Virus record (IMG/VR): IMGVR_UViG_3300027984_000004
Origin: an uncultured virus (IMG/VR IMGVR_UViG_3300027984_000004)
Lineage: Duplodnaviria; Heunggongvirae; Uroviricota; Caudoviricetes
DNA: 20,000 bases
Reading direction: 5' to 3' (one strand)
This document shows, piece by piece, positions 2 through 14,923 of this stretch (within the stretch, counting starts at the first letter, position 1; every line of letters starts with the position of its first letter). The notes under the pieces are model-generated. The model saw only the letters and a list, made by a program, of their open reading frames with translations, had not been told where the DNA came from and did no database searches. The position numbers were made by a program, and so were the translations under genes.

Positions 2-820
2 ACCCAAGTAATCCACGTAATGAATTAAACTATCTGGTAGATAATCTTTATGTCTCCATATAATCCATCCCAATCCCGGATATACAAGTCCGTATTTATG
101 ACCTGATGTATTTATCGAAACAACATTCCTCAAGCGGAAATCCCACAACAGATCAGGATGCAAGAAAGGAGAAATCATACCTCCACTAGCCGCATCAATA
201 TGGATAGAAACATCTATTCCTGCACGTATACTAATAGCATTAAGCATTTGCGATATATTTAAAATATCATCAAATTGACCTGTATATGTGATTCCTAGTA
301 TGGCAACAACACCAATCGTGTTTTTATCTATCAATGGCAATACTCCATAGCCATCTAAAACTTTATGATGTTCAAGTATTGGTGCGCAACGCGGTTCCAC
401 ATCAAAATAATTACAAAATTTTTGCCAACAAACATGCGTCGCGCTTGAAATTATAATGTTAGGCTTTCCCTTGCCACCATTTTCTTCCCAACGACGTTTC
501 ATAGCTAAACCAGCCATCATACACGCCTCGGAAGAACCAATAGTTGAACATCCTATTGCATTATCAACATCTGGACAATTCCACAAATCAGCCAATATCC
601 TCCAGCATTCATTCTCAATAGCTGTAGTTTGTGGATTTTCTGATTTATCAATAGCGTTTTTCCCAAACGTCTCATAATATAGACGATTAGCCCATTCATC
701 CATTTCGGCGGTCACAAATGATTCTACATTCTTACGAGGATTTGAATCTTCCTTTAATCGTTTGGCTATTGTTTCGTATGCTGATTCTGGTGATGTTGGA
801 TATTTGAATAATTTATCCAT
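2..820 (-). CDS. gadB: Glutamate decarboxylase (group II PLP-dependent decarboxylase), 3' end outside the window
   Basis: Not in the ORF track; hand translation from ATG 820 is open to the window edge: MDKLFKYP...KNAIDKSE...STIGSSEACMMAGLAMKRRW...HVCWQKF...HIDAASGG...WDFRL..VVSINTSGHKYGLVYPGLGW...VDYLG. These match GadA/B hallmark motifs including the PLP lysine (SGHK). Confidence 0.93.
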   Translation of the reverse strand, partial: MDKLFKYPTSPESAYETIAKRLKEDSNPRKNVESFVTAEMDEWANRLYYETFGKNAIDKSENPQTTAIENECWRILADLWNCPDVDNAIGCSTIGSSEACMMAGLAMKRRWEENGGKGKPNIIISSATHVCWQKFCNYFDVEPRCAPILEHHKVLDGYGVLPLIDKNTIGVVAILGITYTGQFDDILNISQMLNAISIRAGIDVSIHIDAASGGMISPFLHPDLLWDFRLRNVVSINTSGHKYGLVYPGLGWIIWRHKDYLPDSLIHYVDYLG

Positions 821-6092: not shown

Positions 6093-7028
6093 TTATTTAT
6101 TTATCTTATATACTGCCTCATATGGCGTAATTAACTTTTTAAATGTGCCAGATTGCAATGTGCTTTTAGCGTTACGTTTTACAGCATGTGGTAATCCAAA
6201 TTTATCATCTAACATTTTATCTCTATAATGCGATATATAAATTGCTTTTGCGTTTACATTATTAATCCAATCACAAAACTCGCTAAAATCAATGCCATTG
6301 TATGCATCACAATCTGTATTCCAATATGGCGGGTCTAAATAAACTACTGCATTGAAATCATCTATTTTGATATCTTTATAATCAAGACTTGTTAATTCTA
6401 ACAATGGCTGTTGAAGCCGTTGAAGCTGTTGAAGCTGTTGAAGCTGTTGAAGCTATTGAAGCCGTTGAAGCTGTTGAAGCTGTTCAAGCTGTTGAAGCCG
6501 TTCAAGCTGTTGAAGCTGTTGTTTGTATTTTATGGATTGCTTATAATTATTCGACGTACCATATTTATTTAAAATATCAACTGCCAATTTATATTTAGTA
6601 TCCGAATCTTCCTCAGCATATAAATATGTCTTGAAATTATTTCCAAATGAATTGACCAATAATTGCAAGCATTCTAATGGAGTTAAATCCTCAACGCTTT
6701 TATCTCTAATTACATAAAATTGTTGCATTGGTATTAGCGCATCAAACATATTATATTTGCCAGAAAATATATAATCTACAATTTTTCGCATACGAACATC
6801 ATAAATATTACATATTGTATGATATCTAAATATTAAGGCTTCGGCTGTCATCGCAATGCCACCACCAAACACATCATAAAAATCAAATTTGCCTTTATTC
6901 TCAAGACGTATTAATTGAAATAATTGCCTAGACAACTTTTTCTTGGAACCCTGATATGGAAAACCAATCGGCGGGCCTTTACGATATCCTTTGATTTTTT
7001 CCAAATCAATGATATTAGTTATATTCAT
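6093..7028 (-). pseudogene. Dam/D12-class (alpha) N6-adenine DNA methyltransferase interrupted by one in-frame TAG at 6453-6455
   Basis: FPYQGSKK, motif I DVFGGG and motif IV YLDPPY; track ORFs 6453..7034 and 6093..6404 are in the same frame and separated only by that TAG. Confidence 0.85.
6408..6521 (-). repeat. 9-bp coding tandem repeat, consensus CTTCAACAG (LQQ/LER/LQR), about 12.7 copies
   Basis: Read directly; one unit is CTTCAATAG. Confidence 0.97.
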
Positions 7029-7497
7029 AACCACATGCTGGACATTTATATTTAAATTCTTTATCTAAATTAATGTTATCACCTAGATCATCTGATGCAG
7101 TTAACGGATCTGGCAACACGGATTCCGATAAGTCAAAGCCAAATGCAGACATATCAATATCAAAAATATTAGATAATTCTTCATTCAATAAATCGAAATC
7201 CCATAAAGATAATTCTGATGTTTTATTATCAGTTAAGCGATATGCCCGTATTTGTTCATCCGTTAAGTCATCAACAACAACACACGGAATAGTACTTATT
7301 TTTAATTTTTTGGCCGCTTTCACACGGGTATGACCTGCAATTATCACATTATTAGAATCAACGACAACGGGAACGCGCCATCCAAATGTCTCAATACTAG
7401 CCGCAACGGCATCCACCGCTGGATCATTCTTCCTTGGATTCTTATCATAAAACTTTAAATCATTAATTGATTTTTCATAAATCTGAATAAAAATCAC
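7015..7497 (-). CDS. ParB/sulfiredoxin N-terminal-domain protein with C-terminal CxxC
   Basis: NPRKND..V..VA.SI..FGW..PVVVD...IIAGHTR..AA, DNKTSEL..WD, CPACG; typical partner of phage MTases near terS. Confidence 0.9.
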   Translation of the reverse strand: MIFIQIYEKSINDLKFYDKNPRKNDPAVDAVAASIETFGWRVPVVVDSNNVIIAGHTRVKAAKKLKISTIPCVVVDDLTDEQIRAYRLTDNKTSELSLWDFDLLNEELSNIFDIDMSAFGFDLSESVLPDPLTASDDLGDNINLDKEFKYKCPACGYEYN

Positions 7498-7730
7498 TCT
7501 CCTATAAATGGCGCAATATGTGCAATAACCGCATTAAAACGTGCCTTTTGTGCTGGATAACAATTCCTGCCGGTATGCGTCTTATACCATGCATCCTGCA
7601 ATGCCTCGCACAACGGCGTATGGCAATTAACTGAACGTAAAAGCAATAGTTTCAATTCTTTAAAGTCCGACAAACTGAAAAGCTTCTTTTTAATACATCT
7701 TAGATAAAATTGTCTGATTTCGTCGTCCAT
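7494..7730 (-). CDS. Hypothetical protein, first gene after the promoter
   Basis: SD GGTGA + ATG (MDDEIRQF...); stop overlaps the ParB-like gene start region. Confidence 0.6.
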   Translation of the reverse strand: MDDEIRQFYLRCIKKKLFSLSDFKELKLLLLRSVNCHTPLCEALQDAWYKTHTGRNCYPAQKARFNAVIAHIAPFIGE

Positions 7731-7740
7731 AAAAATCACC

Positions 7741-7779
7741 AAATAAAAAATGCCATATATTTATATAATATGGCATTTT
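7741..7779 (-). terminator. Intrinsic terminator downstream of the pentamer array
   Basis: Perfect 12-bp inverted repeat AAAATGCCATAT (7747-7758) / ATATGGCATTTT (7768-7779), running into TTTTTTATTT on the minus strand. Confidence 0.75.
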
Positions 7780-7793
7780 GAAAATAATGTCAA
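7765..7793 (-). promoter_or_regulatory. SigmaA-type promoter for the ParB/MTase/packaging operon
   Basis: TTGACA (7793-7788), 17 bp, TATTAT (7770-7765). Confidence 0.8.
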
Positions 7794-7824
7794 TAGATAT
7801 TTCTGTTAAATTTACAAAACATAA

Positions 7825-8108
7825 ATGCATAACACAATACCTTATTTTACTTGGCTATACATTTTACGCGACATGACTGTACGTAGCTTTACTACACCAT
7901 GACTATGCATTTACATTACACGATGCCACATGACTATACATTTACACAACCCTACGCTACAATACCGTACCATACAATAACCATACGACACAGAGCACAA
8001 CTTGACTACACCATAACCATACATTATATGACTTAACATTAACTGTACTGTACTCAACTTTACGTTAGCTAACTCAACTCAACCTTACATTTACCTTACA
8101 TAATTACA
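7825..8108 (-). ncRNA. Putative guide-RNA array with 5-nt periodicity (NGY-NN repeats)
   Basis: About 54 consecutive units such as GGTTG AGTTG ... AGTAC AGTAC AGTTA ... GGTAC GGTAT TGTAG CGTAG GGTTG TGTAA; no ORF; begins right after the RAMP-like gene stop and ends before a terminator. The periodicity is observed; RNA function is inferred. Confidence 0.75.
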
Positions 8109-8720
8109 TTATTTCGTAACTGTTATAATTGAACGGCCATAACCGGCATTGCGCCATTGTAAAAAAGCTTTATACTTTGAATATTCCAATAACTCCATGA
8201 CTAACTTTTCATATTTAGGATCAAGCAATTCAATCTCAAAATCAAACGTTGTCCCTACTGGTACAGTTTCACTATTAGCTAATGCAATCCTTTCCCCTTG
8301 TGCCGTCTGCCCCCGCAATGGACGTTGAATATTCCCTACTATGCCCTGTTCTGCCCCTTCATAAACCAGCGGAATCTTTCGCGGGAATACAAATACGCAA
8401 TCTGTTAAAATCTTTATATAAGCTTTAGTTTTAGCTGTTTCCGATGTAGAAACACGTGCCATTGCCTGAGCCGCCGCTTTCAAGAATCCTTTTATCTGAT
8501 AATCCCACATAAAAGGTTGGCCGTCAGGTTTGCCATTCAAGCGTGGGAATACCGTCTTTGCTTTTTCAATTACCTCTGTTATGCCTATTGCCGATATCTC
8601 TTCCGTTGTACTTTTAGCATCCGGCGCTTTGCTGGCAATGTATTCCTCATGAAGATTTGGATCTGCGCTGGTAGTCCCCAACATTTCCGTAATTAATTCA
8701 GCATGGCATTTCAATACCAT
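8109..8720 (-). CDS. Stand-alone Cas7/RAMP-like protein
   Basis: 203 aa; N-terminal strand + LG (ELITEMLGT), P...YQIKGFLK.A helix, E.VP.GT.F.FEI.LL and a C-terminal Gly-loop-like LQWRNAGYGR, the layout of RAMP (Cas7/Csm3-like) folds. Confidence 0.72.
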   Translation of the reverse strand: MVLKCHAELITEMLGTTSADPNLHEEYIASKAPDAKSTTEEISAIGITEVIEKAKTVFPRLNGKPDGQPFMWDYQIKGFLKAAAQAMARVSTSETAKTKAYIKILTDCVFVFPRKIPLVYEGAEQGIVGNIQRPLRGQTAQGERIALANSETVPVGTTFDFEIELLDPKYEKLVMELLEYSKYKAFLQWRNAGYGRSIITVTK

Positions 8721-8724
8721 ATAA

Positions 8725-8856
8725 TCATAAGCTCCTTTTCAAATAATCAATAGCGCGTACTATCGCAAGAATTGCGCATTGACCATAATCTGTACTATAC
8801 CAACTGCATGAACATTTACAAGGTTGCCCGGATAAAGGGCATATACCAGATGTCAT
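8725..8856 (-). CDS. Small Cys-rich protein (43 aa)
   Basis: MTSGICPLSGQPCKCSCSWY...CAI; ATG overlaps the thioredoxin TGA; SD GGAGG upstream. Confidence 0.6.
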   Translation of the reverse strand: MTSGICPLSGQPCKCSCSWYSTDYGQCAILAIVRAIDYLKRSL

Positions 8857-9104
8857 CTGAACCATTCCTCCAAATCTTCCCGTGATAAAACTTCTGGATG
8901 CGTCTTTATCGGCCAACCGTCATCACCCAGCAAAACCAGTTTAGGCAATGATGTTACTCTATACTGCTCTGCTATCTTGGGTTCCTGTTCAATATCAATC
9001 TTTTGGAACTCAACTCCGTATTTAACGCATATACCTTTTACAACTGGTTCATACTGCACACAAACGCGACACCAAGGCGCTGTAAACATAAACATTTTCT
9101 TCAT
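8853..9104 (-). CDS. Thioredoxin-family protein
   Basis: FTAPWCRVC (CxxC), IDIE, Y.VTSLP; SD GGAGG before ATG 9104. Confidence 0.88.
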   Translation of the reverse strand: MKKMFMFTAPWCRVCVQYEPVVKGICVKYGVEFQKIDIEQEPKIAEQYRVTSLPKLVLLGDDGWPIKTHPEVLSREDLEEWFR

Positions 9105-9124
9105 AATTCCAACCTCCAAAAAAT

Positions 9125-9328
9125 TTATAGAGTTAATTGCTCAACGTTGTCATTTGCATGTAAAAATGCGCCGCTTTTAATTTGATTTTTAACTAAAACC
9201 TTAGATTTTTTAAGCCCTGACAATGTATAACCGGAATCCAGTATCAATTTAAGCATTTCCGGCGCATATCCTCCATTCTCAATATCTGATTTGAAAATAC
9301 ATGTATCACTATGCCATATCTCAAACAT
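9125..9328 (-). CDS. Hypothetical protein
   Basis: 67-aa ORF that fills the operon gap exactly. Confidence 0.6.
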   Translation of the reverse strand: MFEIWHSDTCIFKSDIENGGYAPEMLKLILDSGYTLSGLKKSKVLVKNQIKSGAFLHANDNVEQLTL

Positions 9329-9330
9329 AT

Positions 9331-10350
9331 TTATTCTGGTCTCCCATACATAGATATAAGATAATCAATATTTATATTTTTCAATTCAAAATGACATTTA
9401 TCTGGGGTATTCCAGTTTCCTCCCCATTCTAATCCTAAATATTCTCCTATTTTCCCGCATTTATTTAAAAAGTCCTCATCATACTCCTTTCCCTTAATAT
9501 TTTGACATATATCGAAACACATACCCCATTGGTGGAATGATTTGTATTCACTGCCTTTAGCGTTAGTGATTATCTCCCCCGAGAATGTACGCCCTTGTGC
9601 GTAAAATAAATCCTGTTGTTCTTTTGTCCTTATGGTCTCTGTTATCTTAACATCTAACCCATTATTTCTGGCTATTTCAATAAACTGCTCCATTTTAGCC
9701 TTCAAATTAGGGTTCAATCCTTTCCATAATGGAGAAGGTTTATAATATCTAAATACATGCGCTGGATAATTACTGTCACCATATCGTTCCATATTTAACC
9801 TATCCGCTTGCATATTAGCAAATAACTTAGAATTTTCTTTTGAATATCCACCGCGCTGTTTAGCCCAATATATATATCCTTCTCCATAATTATACCCCTG
9901 CAAAGCTAACTTAATGTTATCCAAATCATTAGGTGAACCCACATTAGCCGCTTTTAAACAATCAGCTAAATAATGACATCCACAGTTTATTGAATACTCA
10001 ACATCTTTTATTCCGTTAGGTTTAGAATCGTATTTTTTATTATACTTGCATTCTGCGCTTTGCATTAAATCTGATGTTTTACTTGTGCCTAATGCCCCCC
10101 ATTCTTGACGGCATACTGCCAATATAAGTTTTTTGTATCTTATTATACCGTATCTTTCAGCGTATTTGTCAATCAAACTAGAATATTTCATAATATCATC
10201 TGTTATCCCGACGTTTATCATATCACCGCCAGAATAGCCAACAATATTTACTGGCGGCGCATTTGGCAATTTGATAGCATTAGCGGCATATGCTGACGCT
10301 GGATACAACGCTATACATGCCGCTAATAAAATTGATACAAATCCTTTCAT
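9331..10350 (-). CDS. Secreted peptidoglycan hydrolase: signal peptide + CwlT-type lysozyme-like domain + M15 (L-Ala-D-Glu) peptidase
   Basis: Signal peptide ending AYA; QE..G, DLMQSAE, ALQGYNYG; RT..QQ..YAQGRT, SFHQWG.CFD, D..HFE. Confidence 0.87.
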   Translation of the reverse strand: MKGFVSILLAACIALYPASAYAANAIKLPNAPPVNIVGYSGGDMINVGITDDIMKYSSLIDKYAERYGIIRYKKLILAVCRQEWGALGTSKTSDLMQSAECKYNKKYDSKPNGIKDVEYSINCGCHYLADCLKAANVGSPNDLDNIKLALQGYNYGEGYIYWAKQRGGYSKENSKLFANMQADRLNMERYGDSNYPAHVFRYYKPSPLWKGLNPNLKAKMEQFIEIARNNGLDVKITETIRTKEQQDLFYAQGRTFSGEIITNAKGSEYKSFHQWGMCFDICQNIKGKEYDEDFLNKCGKIGEYLGLEWGGNWNTPDKCHFELKNINIDYLISMYGRPE

Positions 10351-10377
10351 GTTTTACTCTCCCGAAAATCTCTTTAT

Positions 10378-11568
10378 TTATTTTAATAAATTATCTGGAG
10401 TTCCATACATTGATTTATAATCTTGTGGCGCAAATCCATTTAATTCAAAATGACCAGCATCCCCAAGTTTAGACCAATTTCCACCCCAATTCATCCCTAA
10501 TGACATTCCTATGCTTCCTACCTTGTCAAAAAAGCCTCCATCATTTGAATATTCAGCACCGGGCGCATTCCTGCATACATCAAATGCAACACCCCATTCA
10601 TGAGCGCTCTCATAATCATTACCATTAGCGTAGGTAACTATTGCACCCGGTTTAGTTCTACCCTGCGCATATAATGCATTCTGTCGCTCAACCGTCCTGA
10701 ACGTTTCCGTTACTTTTACCGGAAGTCCTGCCGCATTGCATAATTCCAGGAATTGATTCATCTTAGTTTGCATTTCAGGTATTAAACCATATATACTGTC
10801 TGAATTTGAACGTTGATAAACGCCGTAATATTGTAAAACCCTATTTGCATATTTTTTATCCCCATACCTATTCCACCCTAATTTTTGTGCTTGCATATCT
10901 GAAAAACTGCAAGCTTTTTCCTCTAATGTTCCTATGCCTGAATTTGCGTAATTTACAAATCCGCCCCCCATATTATAAGCATATAAAGCAAGTTTAATTC
11001 TTTCAATGTCTGTAGGCGATTGCACATTAGCTAGATGTAATACTGTAGCCAATTCATGGATTCCACAATCTATGGAATATTCTTCATCCTTAATTGAATT
11101 TGGTGTATTAGGATACAATTTATTATACTGGCATTCGCTTGATTGGAGTACATCCGGGCCATATCCACTGTTTTCCTGTTGCGCCAATGCTTTTATTAAT
11201 TCAATATATTCTGATATCCCGTATTTATCAGCATACTTTTCAAATAGTGGCGTGTATTGTAATACCCTATTATTTACATTTGCTCTTACTACTTCTTGGA
11301 TGCCTACCATCTGATTAATTGATTGGGTTATTGAATGAATGGCCGGTTGTATTTCTACCGTTCCAGTACCATCCTGTACTTCCCAACCCAAAACTCGATC
11401 ATCATCCCATTGTACTTGCGGTACATCATTCCACTTTACCAAGGCATTATCTGCGCTCCATTGAACTGTATTATCAACCTCCCCCCAATTAAATGTCCCA
11501 GCAAATGCATAAACTGGAGTAGTTAACATTAGTACAATAAAACCGGTTACAATTAACTTCTTTTTTAT
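10378..11568 (-). CDS. Paralogous secreted lysozyme-like + M15 peptidase (probable ATA start at 11568; first ATG at 11529)
   Basis: QQENSG, DVLQSSE, ALYAYNMG; RT..RQ.ALYAQGRT, SAHEWG.AFD, D.GHFE. Upstream extension yields a full signal peptide xKKKLIVTGFIVLMLTTPVYAFA. Confidence 0.85.
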   Translation of the reverse strand: MKKKLIVTGFIVLMLTTPVYAFAGTFNWGEVDNTVQWSADNALVKWNDVPQVQWDDDRVLGWEVQDGTGTVEIQPAIHSITQSINQMVGIQEVVRANVNNRVLQYTPLFEKYADKYGISEYIELIKALAQQENSGYGPDVLQSSECQYNKLYPNTPNSIKDEEYSIDCGIHELATVLHLANVQSPTDIERIKLALYAYNMGGGFVNYANSGIGTLEEKACSFSDMQAQKLGWNRYGDKKYANRVLQYYGVYQRSNSDSIYGLIPEMQTKMNQFLELCNAAGLPVKVTETFRTVERQNALYAQGRTKPGAIVTYANGNDYESAHEWGVAFDVCRNAPGAEYSNDGGFFDKVGSIGMSLGMNWGGNWSKLGDAGHFELNGFAPQDYKSMYGTPDNLLK

Positions 11569-13882: not shown

Positions 13883-14923
13883 CTACTTTCTTAAATATTT
13901 AGCCCAAATATCTTCTGCGGTACGCTTTTTTATTTCCCTCTTTTGTTCAGGAACATCAATAGCCACATTTAATGATTCCAATGCATCTACCTTTTTTTTC
14001 GCTCGCAACATTTGACGCTTTTCATTTGCGCTTTTTACATAATTAGCTATTCCATTTAAACGCGCTTGCGGCGCTGATAATCCACTTAACAAACAAACTG
14101 TTTCATCTGGATTAACAGATTGAAACGTTGCTAACGGTTCTCCGTATTGTTCCTTTATTTTTTGCAAATCTATACTTGCCGATGCTGATAATACAACATA
14201 TTCTATTAATTCATCTTTTTCTGCTGGAACATATATCCCACCAGATAACGCGCTTAACATACGCTCCGTAGATGATTGTTCTTTCGTTAACCGTCCGATA
14301 ATACCATATCCACCAGCCGTTAACGACCTTTTTAAATCAGCATTATCAATTACACCATCAATATTCTTTACGTCTGGTAATCCTAACAATGATATAAAAT
14401 CATTTACAAATGTTTCGTTAATAAGTTTCTTATCCTCAGCCTTTGAATTATCTATTGCAAACACGGAACAAATACCGTCAATATTTTGCATTTCTCGCAT
14501 CGCTTCTACAGCGTTAGCTTGCGCTTGCAATGATTCGTTTTGCGACGGCAAAACTACAATCGCCCCGATATTCTTATCTGGATACGTTCCAATAAGATTA
14601 TCAATTAACATTGGTGATGCGCCCGATCCTGTGCCCCCGGCGGCTGAAAAAATTACATATACAAAAGGAGTTTTCAATTTATCGTCTATAAACTGATTAA
14701 TCTTACTCCATTCCCCATTTGTGATTAAACGTTTTGAAATATTTCTGTCTTTAGCACTGCCCTCAGCACCAGTTATATGATAGGGTTGTTTGGCTTTTAT
14801 AGTTTCCAAATCCTCTATTGATGTGTTTATGCACACAACATTAAATCCAGCAGATTCAAACAACTTTCCTATGTTTCCGCCGCATTGCCCTATTGCCAAA
14901 AATGACACGTCATTTCTATTCAT
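13883..14923 (-). CDS. Tubulin/FtsZ-family GTPase (TubZ/RepX-like)
   Basis: IGQCGGNI, INTS..D, GSAKDR, signature AAGGTGSG, DN and ID.AD T7-like loop; SD AGGGAG. Confidence 0.9.
   Translation of the reverse strand: MNRNDVSFLAIGQCGGNIGKLFESAGFNVVCINTSIEDLETIKAKQPYHITGAEGSAKDRNISKRLITNGEWSKINQFIDDKLKTPFVYVIFSAAGGTGSGASPMLIDNLIGTYPDKNIGAIVVLPSQNESLQAQANAVEAMREMQNIDGICSVFAIDNSKAEDKKLINETFVNDFISLLGLPDVKNIDGVIDNADLKRSLTAGGYGIIGRLTKEQSSTERMLSALSGGIYVPAEKDELIEYVVLSASASIDLQKIKEQYGEPLATFQSVNPDETVCLLSGLSAPQARLNGIANYVKSANEKRQMLRAKKKVDALESLNVAIDVPEQKREIKKRTAEDIWAKYLRK

Follow-up and report, generated by a model that had tools for sequence, protein, structure and literature searches.

In the 20,000-nucleotide (nt) stretch of DNA from the uncultured caudovirus IMGVR_UViG_3300027984_000004 analysed here (hereafter, the window), a minus-strand gene for a protein of 203 amino acids (aa) is followed by a tract of five-base units, and we consider it very likely that the two form a phage VIPR-type system, that is, a Vipr-like minimal RAMP protein with a downstream guide RNA array of five-base step. 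The locus is a further example of VIPR, in its alternative-repeat, punctuated-array form, and not a new kind of system. This reading is based on the Cas7/Csm3 fold predicted for the protein, on the period-5 array on the strand of the gene, on the link between gene and array across the whole family, on the phage context, on the published mechanism and its repeat variants, and on the alignment of the protein's loop rich in glycine (G-loop) with that of a characterised Vipr. An initial annotation of the window had proposed an RNA-guided system in which a fixed GY scaffold holds the RNA while the variable bases are displayed, and our analysis supports such a reading.

Sequence searches say little about the 203-aa protein. 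Pfam, the sequences of the PDB and PADLOC returned no match, PHROGs gave only phrog_18392 (E 0.13), and the ESM Atlas listed only unnamed viral clusters. In contrast, an AlphaFold2 model built with 40 family members (pLDDT 84, pTM 0.80) gave 179 matches at E ≤ 0.001 when compared with the PDB using Foldseek, the best of them being type VII Cas7 (8z4j_J, E 5e-8) and Csm3. VIA-align, an independent all-against-all structural search, placed Csm3 first (6ae2_B, Z 12.7, root-mean-square deviation 2.9 over 145 residues), followed by type VII Cas7, Cmr4, Csf2 and gRAMP domains, and all of these matches span residues 1-203. Given these matches, and the thumb and the G-loop in the model (Table 1), the protein is predicted to be a minimal RAMP of the Cas7 kind, with a single RNA recognition motif (RRM) core. 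Such a fold had been expected in the initial annotation, which had also pointed to a C-terminal glycine-rich loop with the motif QWRNAGYGR; this motif occupies residues 188-196 and lies within the G-loop of the model.

The array is the second line of evidence. Over the first 330 nt past the stop of the gene, read on the minus strand, the identity at lag 5 is 0.477, while neighbouring lags give around 0.22-0.33. For positions 8100..7831 it is 0.498, compared with 0.285 ± 0.030 (maximum 0.381) in 2000 dinucleotide-preserving shuffles, none of which reaches the observed value (z 7.1). When the whole window was scanned in pieces of 100 nt for a lag-5 identity of at least 0.42, a sustained periodic run was found only here, at starts from 8150 down to 7900; the one other signal was an isolated, marginal piece at 10080. 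A dynamic parse resolves the tract into pentamers of the form G-Y-N-N-N, of which 44 open with GT and 4 with GC among a total of 52. They fall into blocks of 2, 10, 5, 7, 7, 6, 2, 7 and 6 units with no single continuous register. The separators are, in order, the single bases T, T, G, T, T, T and G, plus AT once, and with one extra base between blocks, every boundary thus shifts the phase by +1. The expected period-5 peak and an earlier count of about 54 pentamers, some 50 of them with GY, are thus borne out, with the correction that the units lie in nine phase-shifted blocks and not in one frame.

The usual last unit of a block is GTAAA, GTTAA or GTTAT. The base preceding GY is A in 42% of the units, T in 29%, G in 17% and C in 12%, and position 2 is T in 92% and C in 8% of the units in the clade of the window. 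The canonical GGY/NN repeat of VIPR does not fit this array, as its first G is not fixed. In agreement with the description of the tract as non-coding, any open reading frame (ORF) overlapping 7743-8108 is at most 48 aa long, whichever the strand. A depletion of stop codons in the triplets of the units (positions 3-5 and 2-4) was set aside, given that dinucleotide bias explains it equally well. No Rfam family matches the tract, a direct-repeat search found no repeated element of at least 20 nt within it, and as an RNA it folds no better than shuffles (z 0.04). Among public runs, the stretch 7741-8720 is present in two DNA runs that bear the label termite gut metagenome and may be where it comes from, and no RNA run containing it was listed.

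Table 1. Positions of the gene, of the predicted elements of its protein, and of the array and terminator-like hairpin (residues refer to the 203-aa protein)
Feature	Position	Strand	Description
vipr-like gene, 203 aa	8109..8720	minus	ORF from ATG (8720) to TAA; predicted minimal RAMP with a single RRM core
Thumb hairpin of the protein	~residues 129-153		beta-hairpin with low-confidence tip; from the secondary structure of the model
G-loop of the protein	residues 183-196, before the last strand		glycine-rich; contains Q188-W189-R190
vrRNA-like array	7831..8099	minus	269 nt; 52 pentamers G-Y-N-N-N, 48 with GY, in 9 phase-shifted blocks
First block, 2 units, followed by separator T at 8089	tract start 8099	minus	
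Longest block, 10 units	8039..8088	minus	followed by separator T at 8038
5-unit block	8013..8037	minus	followed by separator G at 8012
7-unit block	7977..8011	minus	followed by separator T at 7976
7-unit block	7941..7975	minus	followed by separator T at 7940
6-unit block	7910..7939	minus	followed by separator T at 7909
2-unit block, separator G (7898) and 7-unit block	7863..7908	minus	followed by AT at 7862-7861
Final block, 6 units	7831..7860	minus	decays into AT-rich sequence
Terminator-like hairpin and T-run	7741..7779	minus	12 bp, 9-nt loop; closes the gene-plus-array unit

Cas7-family backbone subunits of CRISPR effectors polymerise on RNA with a fixed step, and the predicted protein shares with Csm3 (6ae2), type VII Cas7 (8yhd, 8z4j), Cmr4 (4w8w) and Csf2 (8rc2) the RRM core, the thumb hairpin and the glycine-rich loop. 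In other respects, it differs from them. Sequence identity to these subunits is only 10-19%, and the protein comes without partner subunits, a repeat-spacer array or adaptation genes. The step in the system of the window would be 5 nt, with two to three bases displayed, whereas in CRISPR Cas7 it is 6 nt with five displayed. Unlike in class 1 CRISPR-Cas types III and VII, no Cas10, Cas5, Cas6, Cas14 or other partner genes were found in the window. As the initial annotation had stated, there is no repeat-spacer array in the window, where TRF and a direct-repeat search gave only a 9-nt coding repeat at 6407-6521, and there is no other cas gene: no Cas family was found among 32 other ORFs of the window by Pfam and PHROGs, nor among nine ORFs by PADLOC. 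One could imagine that such a lone Cas7 mimic, with or without RNA, is an anti-CRISPR decoy that poisons type I, III or IV effectors of the host. Phages are reported to encode RNA anti-CRISPRs that mimic repeats (PMC10651486), and the closest folds are Csm3 and type VII Cas7. Nevertheless, Rfam and the direct-repeat search found no mimic of a CRISPR repeat in the tract, and a decoy would leave the pentamer array with its variable bases unexplained, so we regard this alternative as very improbable.

The link between gene and array extends far beyond the window. In a clustered protein collection, at least 2742 of 2871 candidates are relatives at E ≤ 0.001, and none of those relatives carries a Pfam domain or an informative name. 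Viral contigs hold at least 561 relatives, from 573 candidate stretches listed, and among bacterial and archaeal contigs, with one genome per species, a relative is encoded in 131 of 242 candidate stretches, mostly from metagenome-assembled genomes of gut Clostridia. We compared 162 loci (82 viral and 80 genomic) and located the gene by its G-loop motif in 157 of them. In 149 of these, a period-5 tract lies no more than 800 nt from the gene, being upstream in 61, downstream in 108 and on both sides in 20; an earlier count of viral loci alone gave 78 of 81. Pieces of 100 nt are periodic in 11.2% of cases near the gene vs. 0.09% at more than 1.5 kb from it, and the periodic base is G on the strand of the gene in 1195 of 1410 periodic pieces.

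These arrays resemble that of the window in being divided into short blocks. There are 2353 blocks family-wide, with a median of 6 units, a single-G separator in 1899 of 2325 cases, and a last unit that leans to G-C-A-A-N. Position 1 of the unit is G in 94%, position 2 is C in 53%, A in 23% and T in 19%, and positions 3-5 are variable and A-rich. Among 289 pairs of related, non-identical blocks, the mismatch rates at positions 1-5 were 0.016, 0.107, 0.136, 0.130 and 0.153; therefore, only the G is held fixed across the family. Conservation by position in these pairs does not tell which positions are read and which are not. The initial annotation had anticipated that homologues would carry periodic arrays with different variable bases, and this is what the loci show. 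None of the other loci shares a block with the window, the closest match reaching 75% over 5 units, in the array of a 75%-identical relative (locus L001). The nearest record is identical over 6612-10220 and so gave no comparison. The L001 block (GTACA...GTTAC) and the window block at 8013-8037 look homologous: they have in common an odd, AT-anchored third unit, and three of their six differences, counting positions 2-5, fall on the fifth base of the unit.

It might be argued that the tract is an element acting at the level of DNA (e.g., iterons, or a site for packaging or partition that serves the ParB-like and terminase genes), and that the RAMP gene stands beside it by accident. A ParB-like gene (7015-7497) begins approximately 0.3 kb downstream of the array, the small terminase gene follows at approximately 2 kb, and a period of 5 bp corresponds to half a helical turn. 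Nevertheless, the tract accompanies the RAMP gene in nearly all of the loci regardless of their neighbours, and the periodic base is strand-specific. When ORFs of at least 60 aa within 3 kb of the gene were clustered over 158 loci, none of the neighbouring ORFs of the window clustered with an ORF of another locus; thus, the ParB-like gene is unsupported as a helper. The chance that the array is such a DNA element seems to us very slight. In the same clustering, the commonest neighbours of the gene were an XRE-type helix-turn-helix protein (66 loci, at a median distance of 1.4 kb and on either strand) and a single-stranded DNA-binding protein (44 loci), both of which are ordinary early-region genes of temperate phages.

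VIPR systems were first described in preprints of 2026, the main one being bioRxiv 10.64898/2026.04.26.720920. There, Vipr is described as a minimal RAMP that occurs mostly in phages and proviruses and lacks CRISPR arrays. The RNAs of phage SUSP1 (vrRNAs) consist of 9-16 YNNGG repeats, also written GGY/NN, and end in a conserved 3′ tail. Their NN bases pair with double-stranded DNA, each third target base being skipped, and the bound DNA is repressed in its transcription; satellites and prophages are the natural targets. The account covers 667 systems of types I-VII and states for all seven that they use GGY/NN "or a related consensus", and its Methods and the legend of fig. S18 name the alternative repeats NNNGG, YNNNG and NNNNG as well as 'staggered' vrRNA arrays. 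Silencing by SUSP1 is reported to be lost when GGY is perturbed, with GGY>AGY among the tested constructs in the legend of fig. S12. The text of a cryo-EM preprint (10.64898/2026.04.26.720927) has D177 and H17 reading the first G, W178 stacking on the second and R179 holding the pyrimidine. A later account describes VIPR-like arrays in 21 clusters whose motifs are non-canonical, including WGT/NN and TGH/NN, beside Vipr-like folds (10.64898/2026.10.21.760802), and a further one reports that VIPR decides the competition between a phage and its satellite (10.64898/2026.10.15.759431).

Compared with VIPR type II, known from SUSP1 and a Pseudomonas fulva prophage, the locus of the window has the same phage-borne, lone minimal RAMP of approximately 200 aa with thumb and G-loop, the same lack of a CRISPR array and of other cas genes, and a pentanucleotide array on the strand of the gene in which a G-pyrimidine is fixed while other bases vary. 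The Trp-Arg pair of the G-loop is also kept. In contrast to type II, the repeat is xGY/NN and not GGY/NN, the guides would have 5-10 units with one-base bounds and not 9-16 units with a structured, conserved 3′ tail, the window has no vap1-like neighbour, and the family is found in gut Clostridia and similar bacteria and not in Enterobacteria and Pseudomonas. The resemblance to phage VIPR loci that had been pointed out in the initial annotation is borne out, as VIPR is in print with precisely the mechanism proposed there, for its type II. The relaxed NGY scaffold that it had offered as a variant is in print as well, and hence a known one, as YNNNG or NNNNG in the main account and as WGT/NN in the later one. 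YNNNG is G-Y-N-N-N read from a different start, A or T precedes GT in 71% of the window units, as in the WGT/NN clusters, and the abutting blocks with their one-base offset fit the '1 nt overlapping positions' of the fig. S18 legend. From these texts and legends, we infer that the locus shares its architecture and clade with alternative-repeat VIPR.

The comparison can be carried to individual residues. The SUSP1 record KT454805.2 has an ORF of 195 aa (28474-29061, minus strand) with GGTNN arrays on both sides, and this ORF holds H17, E71, M72, R138, C173, D177, W178 and R179 at the numbers of the cryo-EM preprint. Those eight residues agree with the ones named there, while residue 175 is Val in the record and T175 in the preprint. 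We aligned the window protein with the SUSP1 Vipr using hhalign in three ways, and in all three alignments Q188-W189-R190 corresponds to D177-W178-R179 and G195-R196 to G183-R184 of SUSP1. W189 and R190 are invariant in the family of the window and Q188 nearly so, and H17 of SUSP1 falls in an alignment gap. These weak alignments suggest that the contacts to the two fixed bases are kept and that the contacts to the freed base are lost. The replacement of Asp177 by Gln188, together with the absence of an aligned counterpart of His17, would explain why the first base of the repeat is relaxed in the window.

Several observations weigh against the assignment to VIPR. The alignments just mentioned indicate marginal homology: the single sequence aligned with SUSP1 Vipr over its full length with a probability of 11.5% (E 2.6e-3), and the profiles aligned over the C-terminal halves only, a profile of 40 sequences, set against a type II profile of 31, with 32% (E 4.8e-4) and a more diverse 33-sequence profile with 57% (E 1e-4). 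The residue aligned with the thumb Arg138 of SUSP1 is not Arg, in a low-confidence part of the alignment. A conserved 3′ tail like that of SUSP1 is lacking in the tract of the window, where the blocks stand 1-2 bases apart. Accessory vap genes are typical of VIPR operons, if not of every type, and no conserved partner of this sort emerged beside the gene from the clustering over 158 loci.

A related alternative is that a RAMP of the same ancestry uses a pentamer RNA but works unlike the published VIPR, for example by targeting RNA, or by reading three bases per unit or skipping differently. The residues by which SUSP1 Vipr reads the first G (G1) are not kept, three to four positions per unit vary, and with two read bases per unit, guides of a median of 6 units would specify approximately 12 bases vs. 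18-32 for the 9-16 repeats of SUSP1. This explanation nevertheless seems to us improbable, if less so than the DNA element or the decoy: there is no positive sign of RNA targeting, the fold, the G-loop and the array layout are those of VIPR, and the statement on the seven types in the main account already allows for a related consensus. Within the VIPR assignment itself, there is room for variation. The branch would be distinguished by a first G of the canonical GGY that is not fixed, its SUSP1 readers Asp and His being replaced (Gln188) or unaligned; therefore, each unit has three variable positions, and guides are short. Given the apparent loss of the G1 pocket, the number of positions that vary and the length of the guides, it is possible, albeit doubtful, that the code of this branch departs from the published rule of NN plus one skipped base. 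Because two read bases per unit would give so much less specificity than in SUSP1, specificity may come from three read bases per unit, e.g., one codon per protomer. On this reading, the single bases between the blocks may signal processing or assembly and in this way fix the length of the guides without a structured tail.

As for expression, it is plausible that gene and array form one transcription unit, given that no terminator-like hairpin lies between the vipr-like gene and the tract, a promoter-like site is found upstream of the gene (8821-8794) and a hairpin stands at the end of the tract. Such promoter-like sites are no commoner in the region than in shuffles. The hairpin (7779-7747), which is followed by a T-run, has a free energy of -12.9 kcal/mol in RNAfold (z -2.68), and 2 of 200 shuffles fold as well; it is in agreement with the intrinsic terminator that had been annotated at this place. 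A consensus terminator scanner called 0 terminators, its loop range being 3-8 nt vs. the 9-nt loop of the hairpin. Overlapping the 5′ arm of the hairpin, there is a sigma-70-like, near-consensus site on the minus strand (7765-7793; TTGACA, 17 nt, TATTAT, 11/12) that faces an 82-aa ORF (7494-7742) and the ParB-like gene. Upstream of the vipr-like gene, an ORF of 43 aa rich in Cys (six Cys; 8725-8856, minus strand) stops 4 nt short of the vipr start, and its own start forms an ATGA overlap with a thioredoxin-like ORF (8853-9119). A longer, 63-aa version of this Cys-rich ORF was found in no other locus compared.

Taken as a VIPR system, the locus would work as follows. The gene and the array would be co-transcribed from upstream of position 8720 to the hairpin, and the transcript would yield short guides, one per block of 5-10 units and each bounded by a single extra base, as the family-wide architecture suggests. 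One Vipr protomer would bind each pentamer, W189, R190 and the thumb holding the fixed G and the next pyrimidine. The other bases would face outward and pair, with gaps, with the double-stranded DNA of a rival phage, satellite or prophage, the transcription of which would be silenced.

Gapped searches for targets of such guides, in which only exact matches were considered, gave no candidate that withstood scrutiny. The 10-unit block (8088-8039), searched as two bases after GY plus one free base (20 fixed bases), had 0 matches in viral_contigs and 5 mutually unrelated ones in metagenome_contigs. In one of the latter (L165), a base-by-base comparison showed that the free bases equal the fifth base of the unit at 3 of 9 positions. 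We read the five matches as chance. When 150 random guides of at least 6 units from 83 sources were compared with their own DNA under 11 rules (1.04 Mb, both strands, arrays masked), the fractions of best matches equalled those of order-shuffled controls. Likewise, all 1974 unique guides from 163 sources were compared with 2.16 Mb; the 15 rules applied had 2-5 read and 0-3 skipped positions and required exact agreement over 16-20 bases. No excess over shuffled controls was seen, save for period-5 rules that matched residual arrays. Therefore, no guide matches the vipr genes or flanks compared.

The remainder of the window is phage DNA. Pfam and PHROGs identify a large and a small terminase, an SPP1-type portal, a MuF-like head protein and two endolysin-like genes, as well as a TubZ-like tubulin, an ERCC4 nuclease and methyltransferases. 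Some of these genes present features of their own. The ORFs for ParB_N (the ParB-like gene), MTase_II (6453-7034) and a methyltransferase fragment (6093-6404) are consecutive on the minus strand and resemble a single ParB-N plus DNA-methyltransferase gene that is in pieces. The 9-nt tandem repeat mentioned above (GCTGTTGAA; 12.8 copies, 88% matches) spans the junction between MTase_II and the methyltransferase fragment and could be a repeat-length frameshift or a linker. The two endolysin-like genes (339 and 383 aa; 9331-11529, minus strand) are neighbouring paralogues, each with Lysozyme_like and VanY/Peptidase_M15_4 domains. At the window edge, beside head and neck genes, a pyridoxal-dependent decarboxylase domain (PF00282, E 2.4e-45; 2-820, minus strand) may represent a phage auxiliary metabolic gene. 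The tubulin gene (13883-14923, minus strand) is TubZ/PhuZ-like (Tubulin E 6e-14, TubZ_C_3 E 5e-11); the longest contig known for this phage measures approximately 71 kb.

VIPR is a recently described RNA-guided DNA-binding system and has been proposed as an ancestor of the backbones of CRISPR effectors. The locus in the window is a compact addition, one gene with approximately eight guides in a termite-gut phage, and it is part of a branch, so far uncharacterised and very large (at least 2742 protein clusters, at least 561 viral contigs and 131 species genomes), that is carried mostly by phages of gut Clostridia. This branch differs from the type II studied so far in that its fixed scaffold is cut to G plus pyrimidine, its guides are short and set apart by single bases, and a conserved accessory gene is lacking. 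The change from Asp to Gln at the reader of G1, taken with the repeat's missing first G, would be a concrete case of co-variation between protein and RNA, one that bears on the specificity for the repeat. The targeting rule of the branch decides how such a system could be reprogrammed, and a rule of three bases per unit, if true, would be a second programmable, noncontiguous code.

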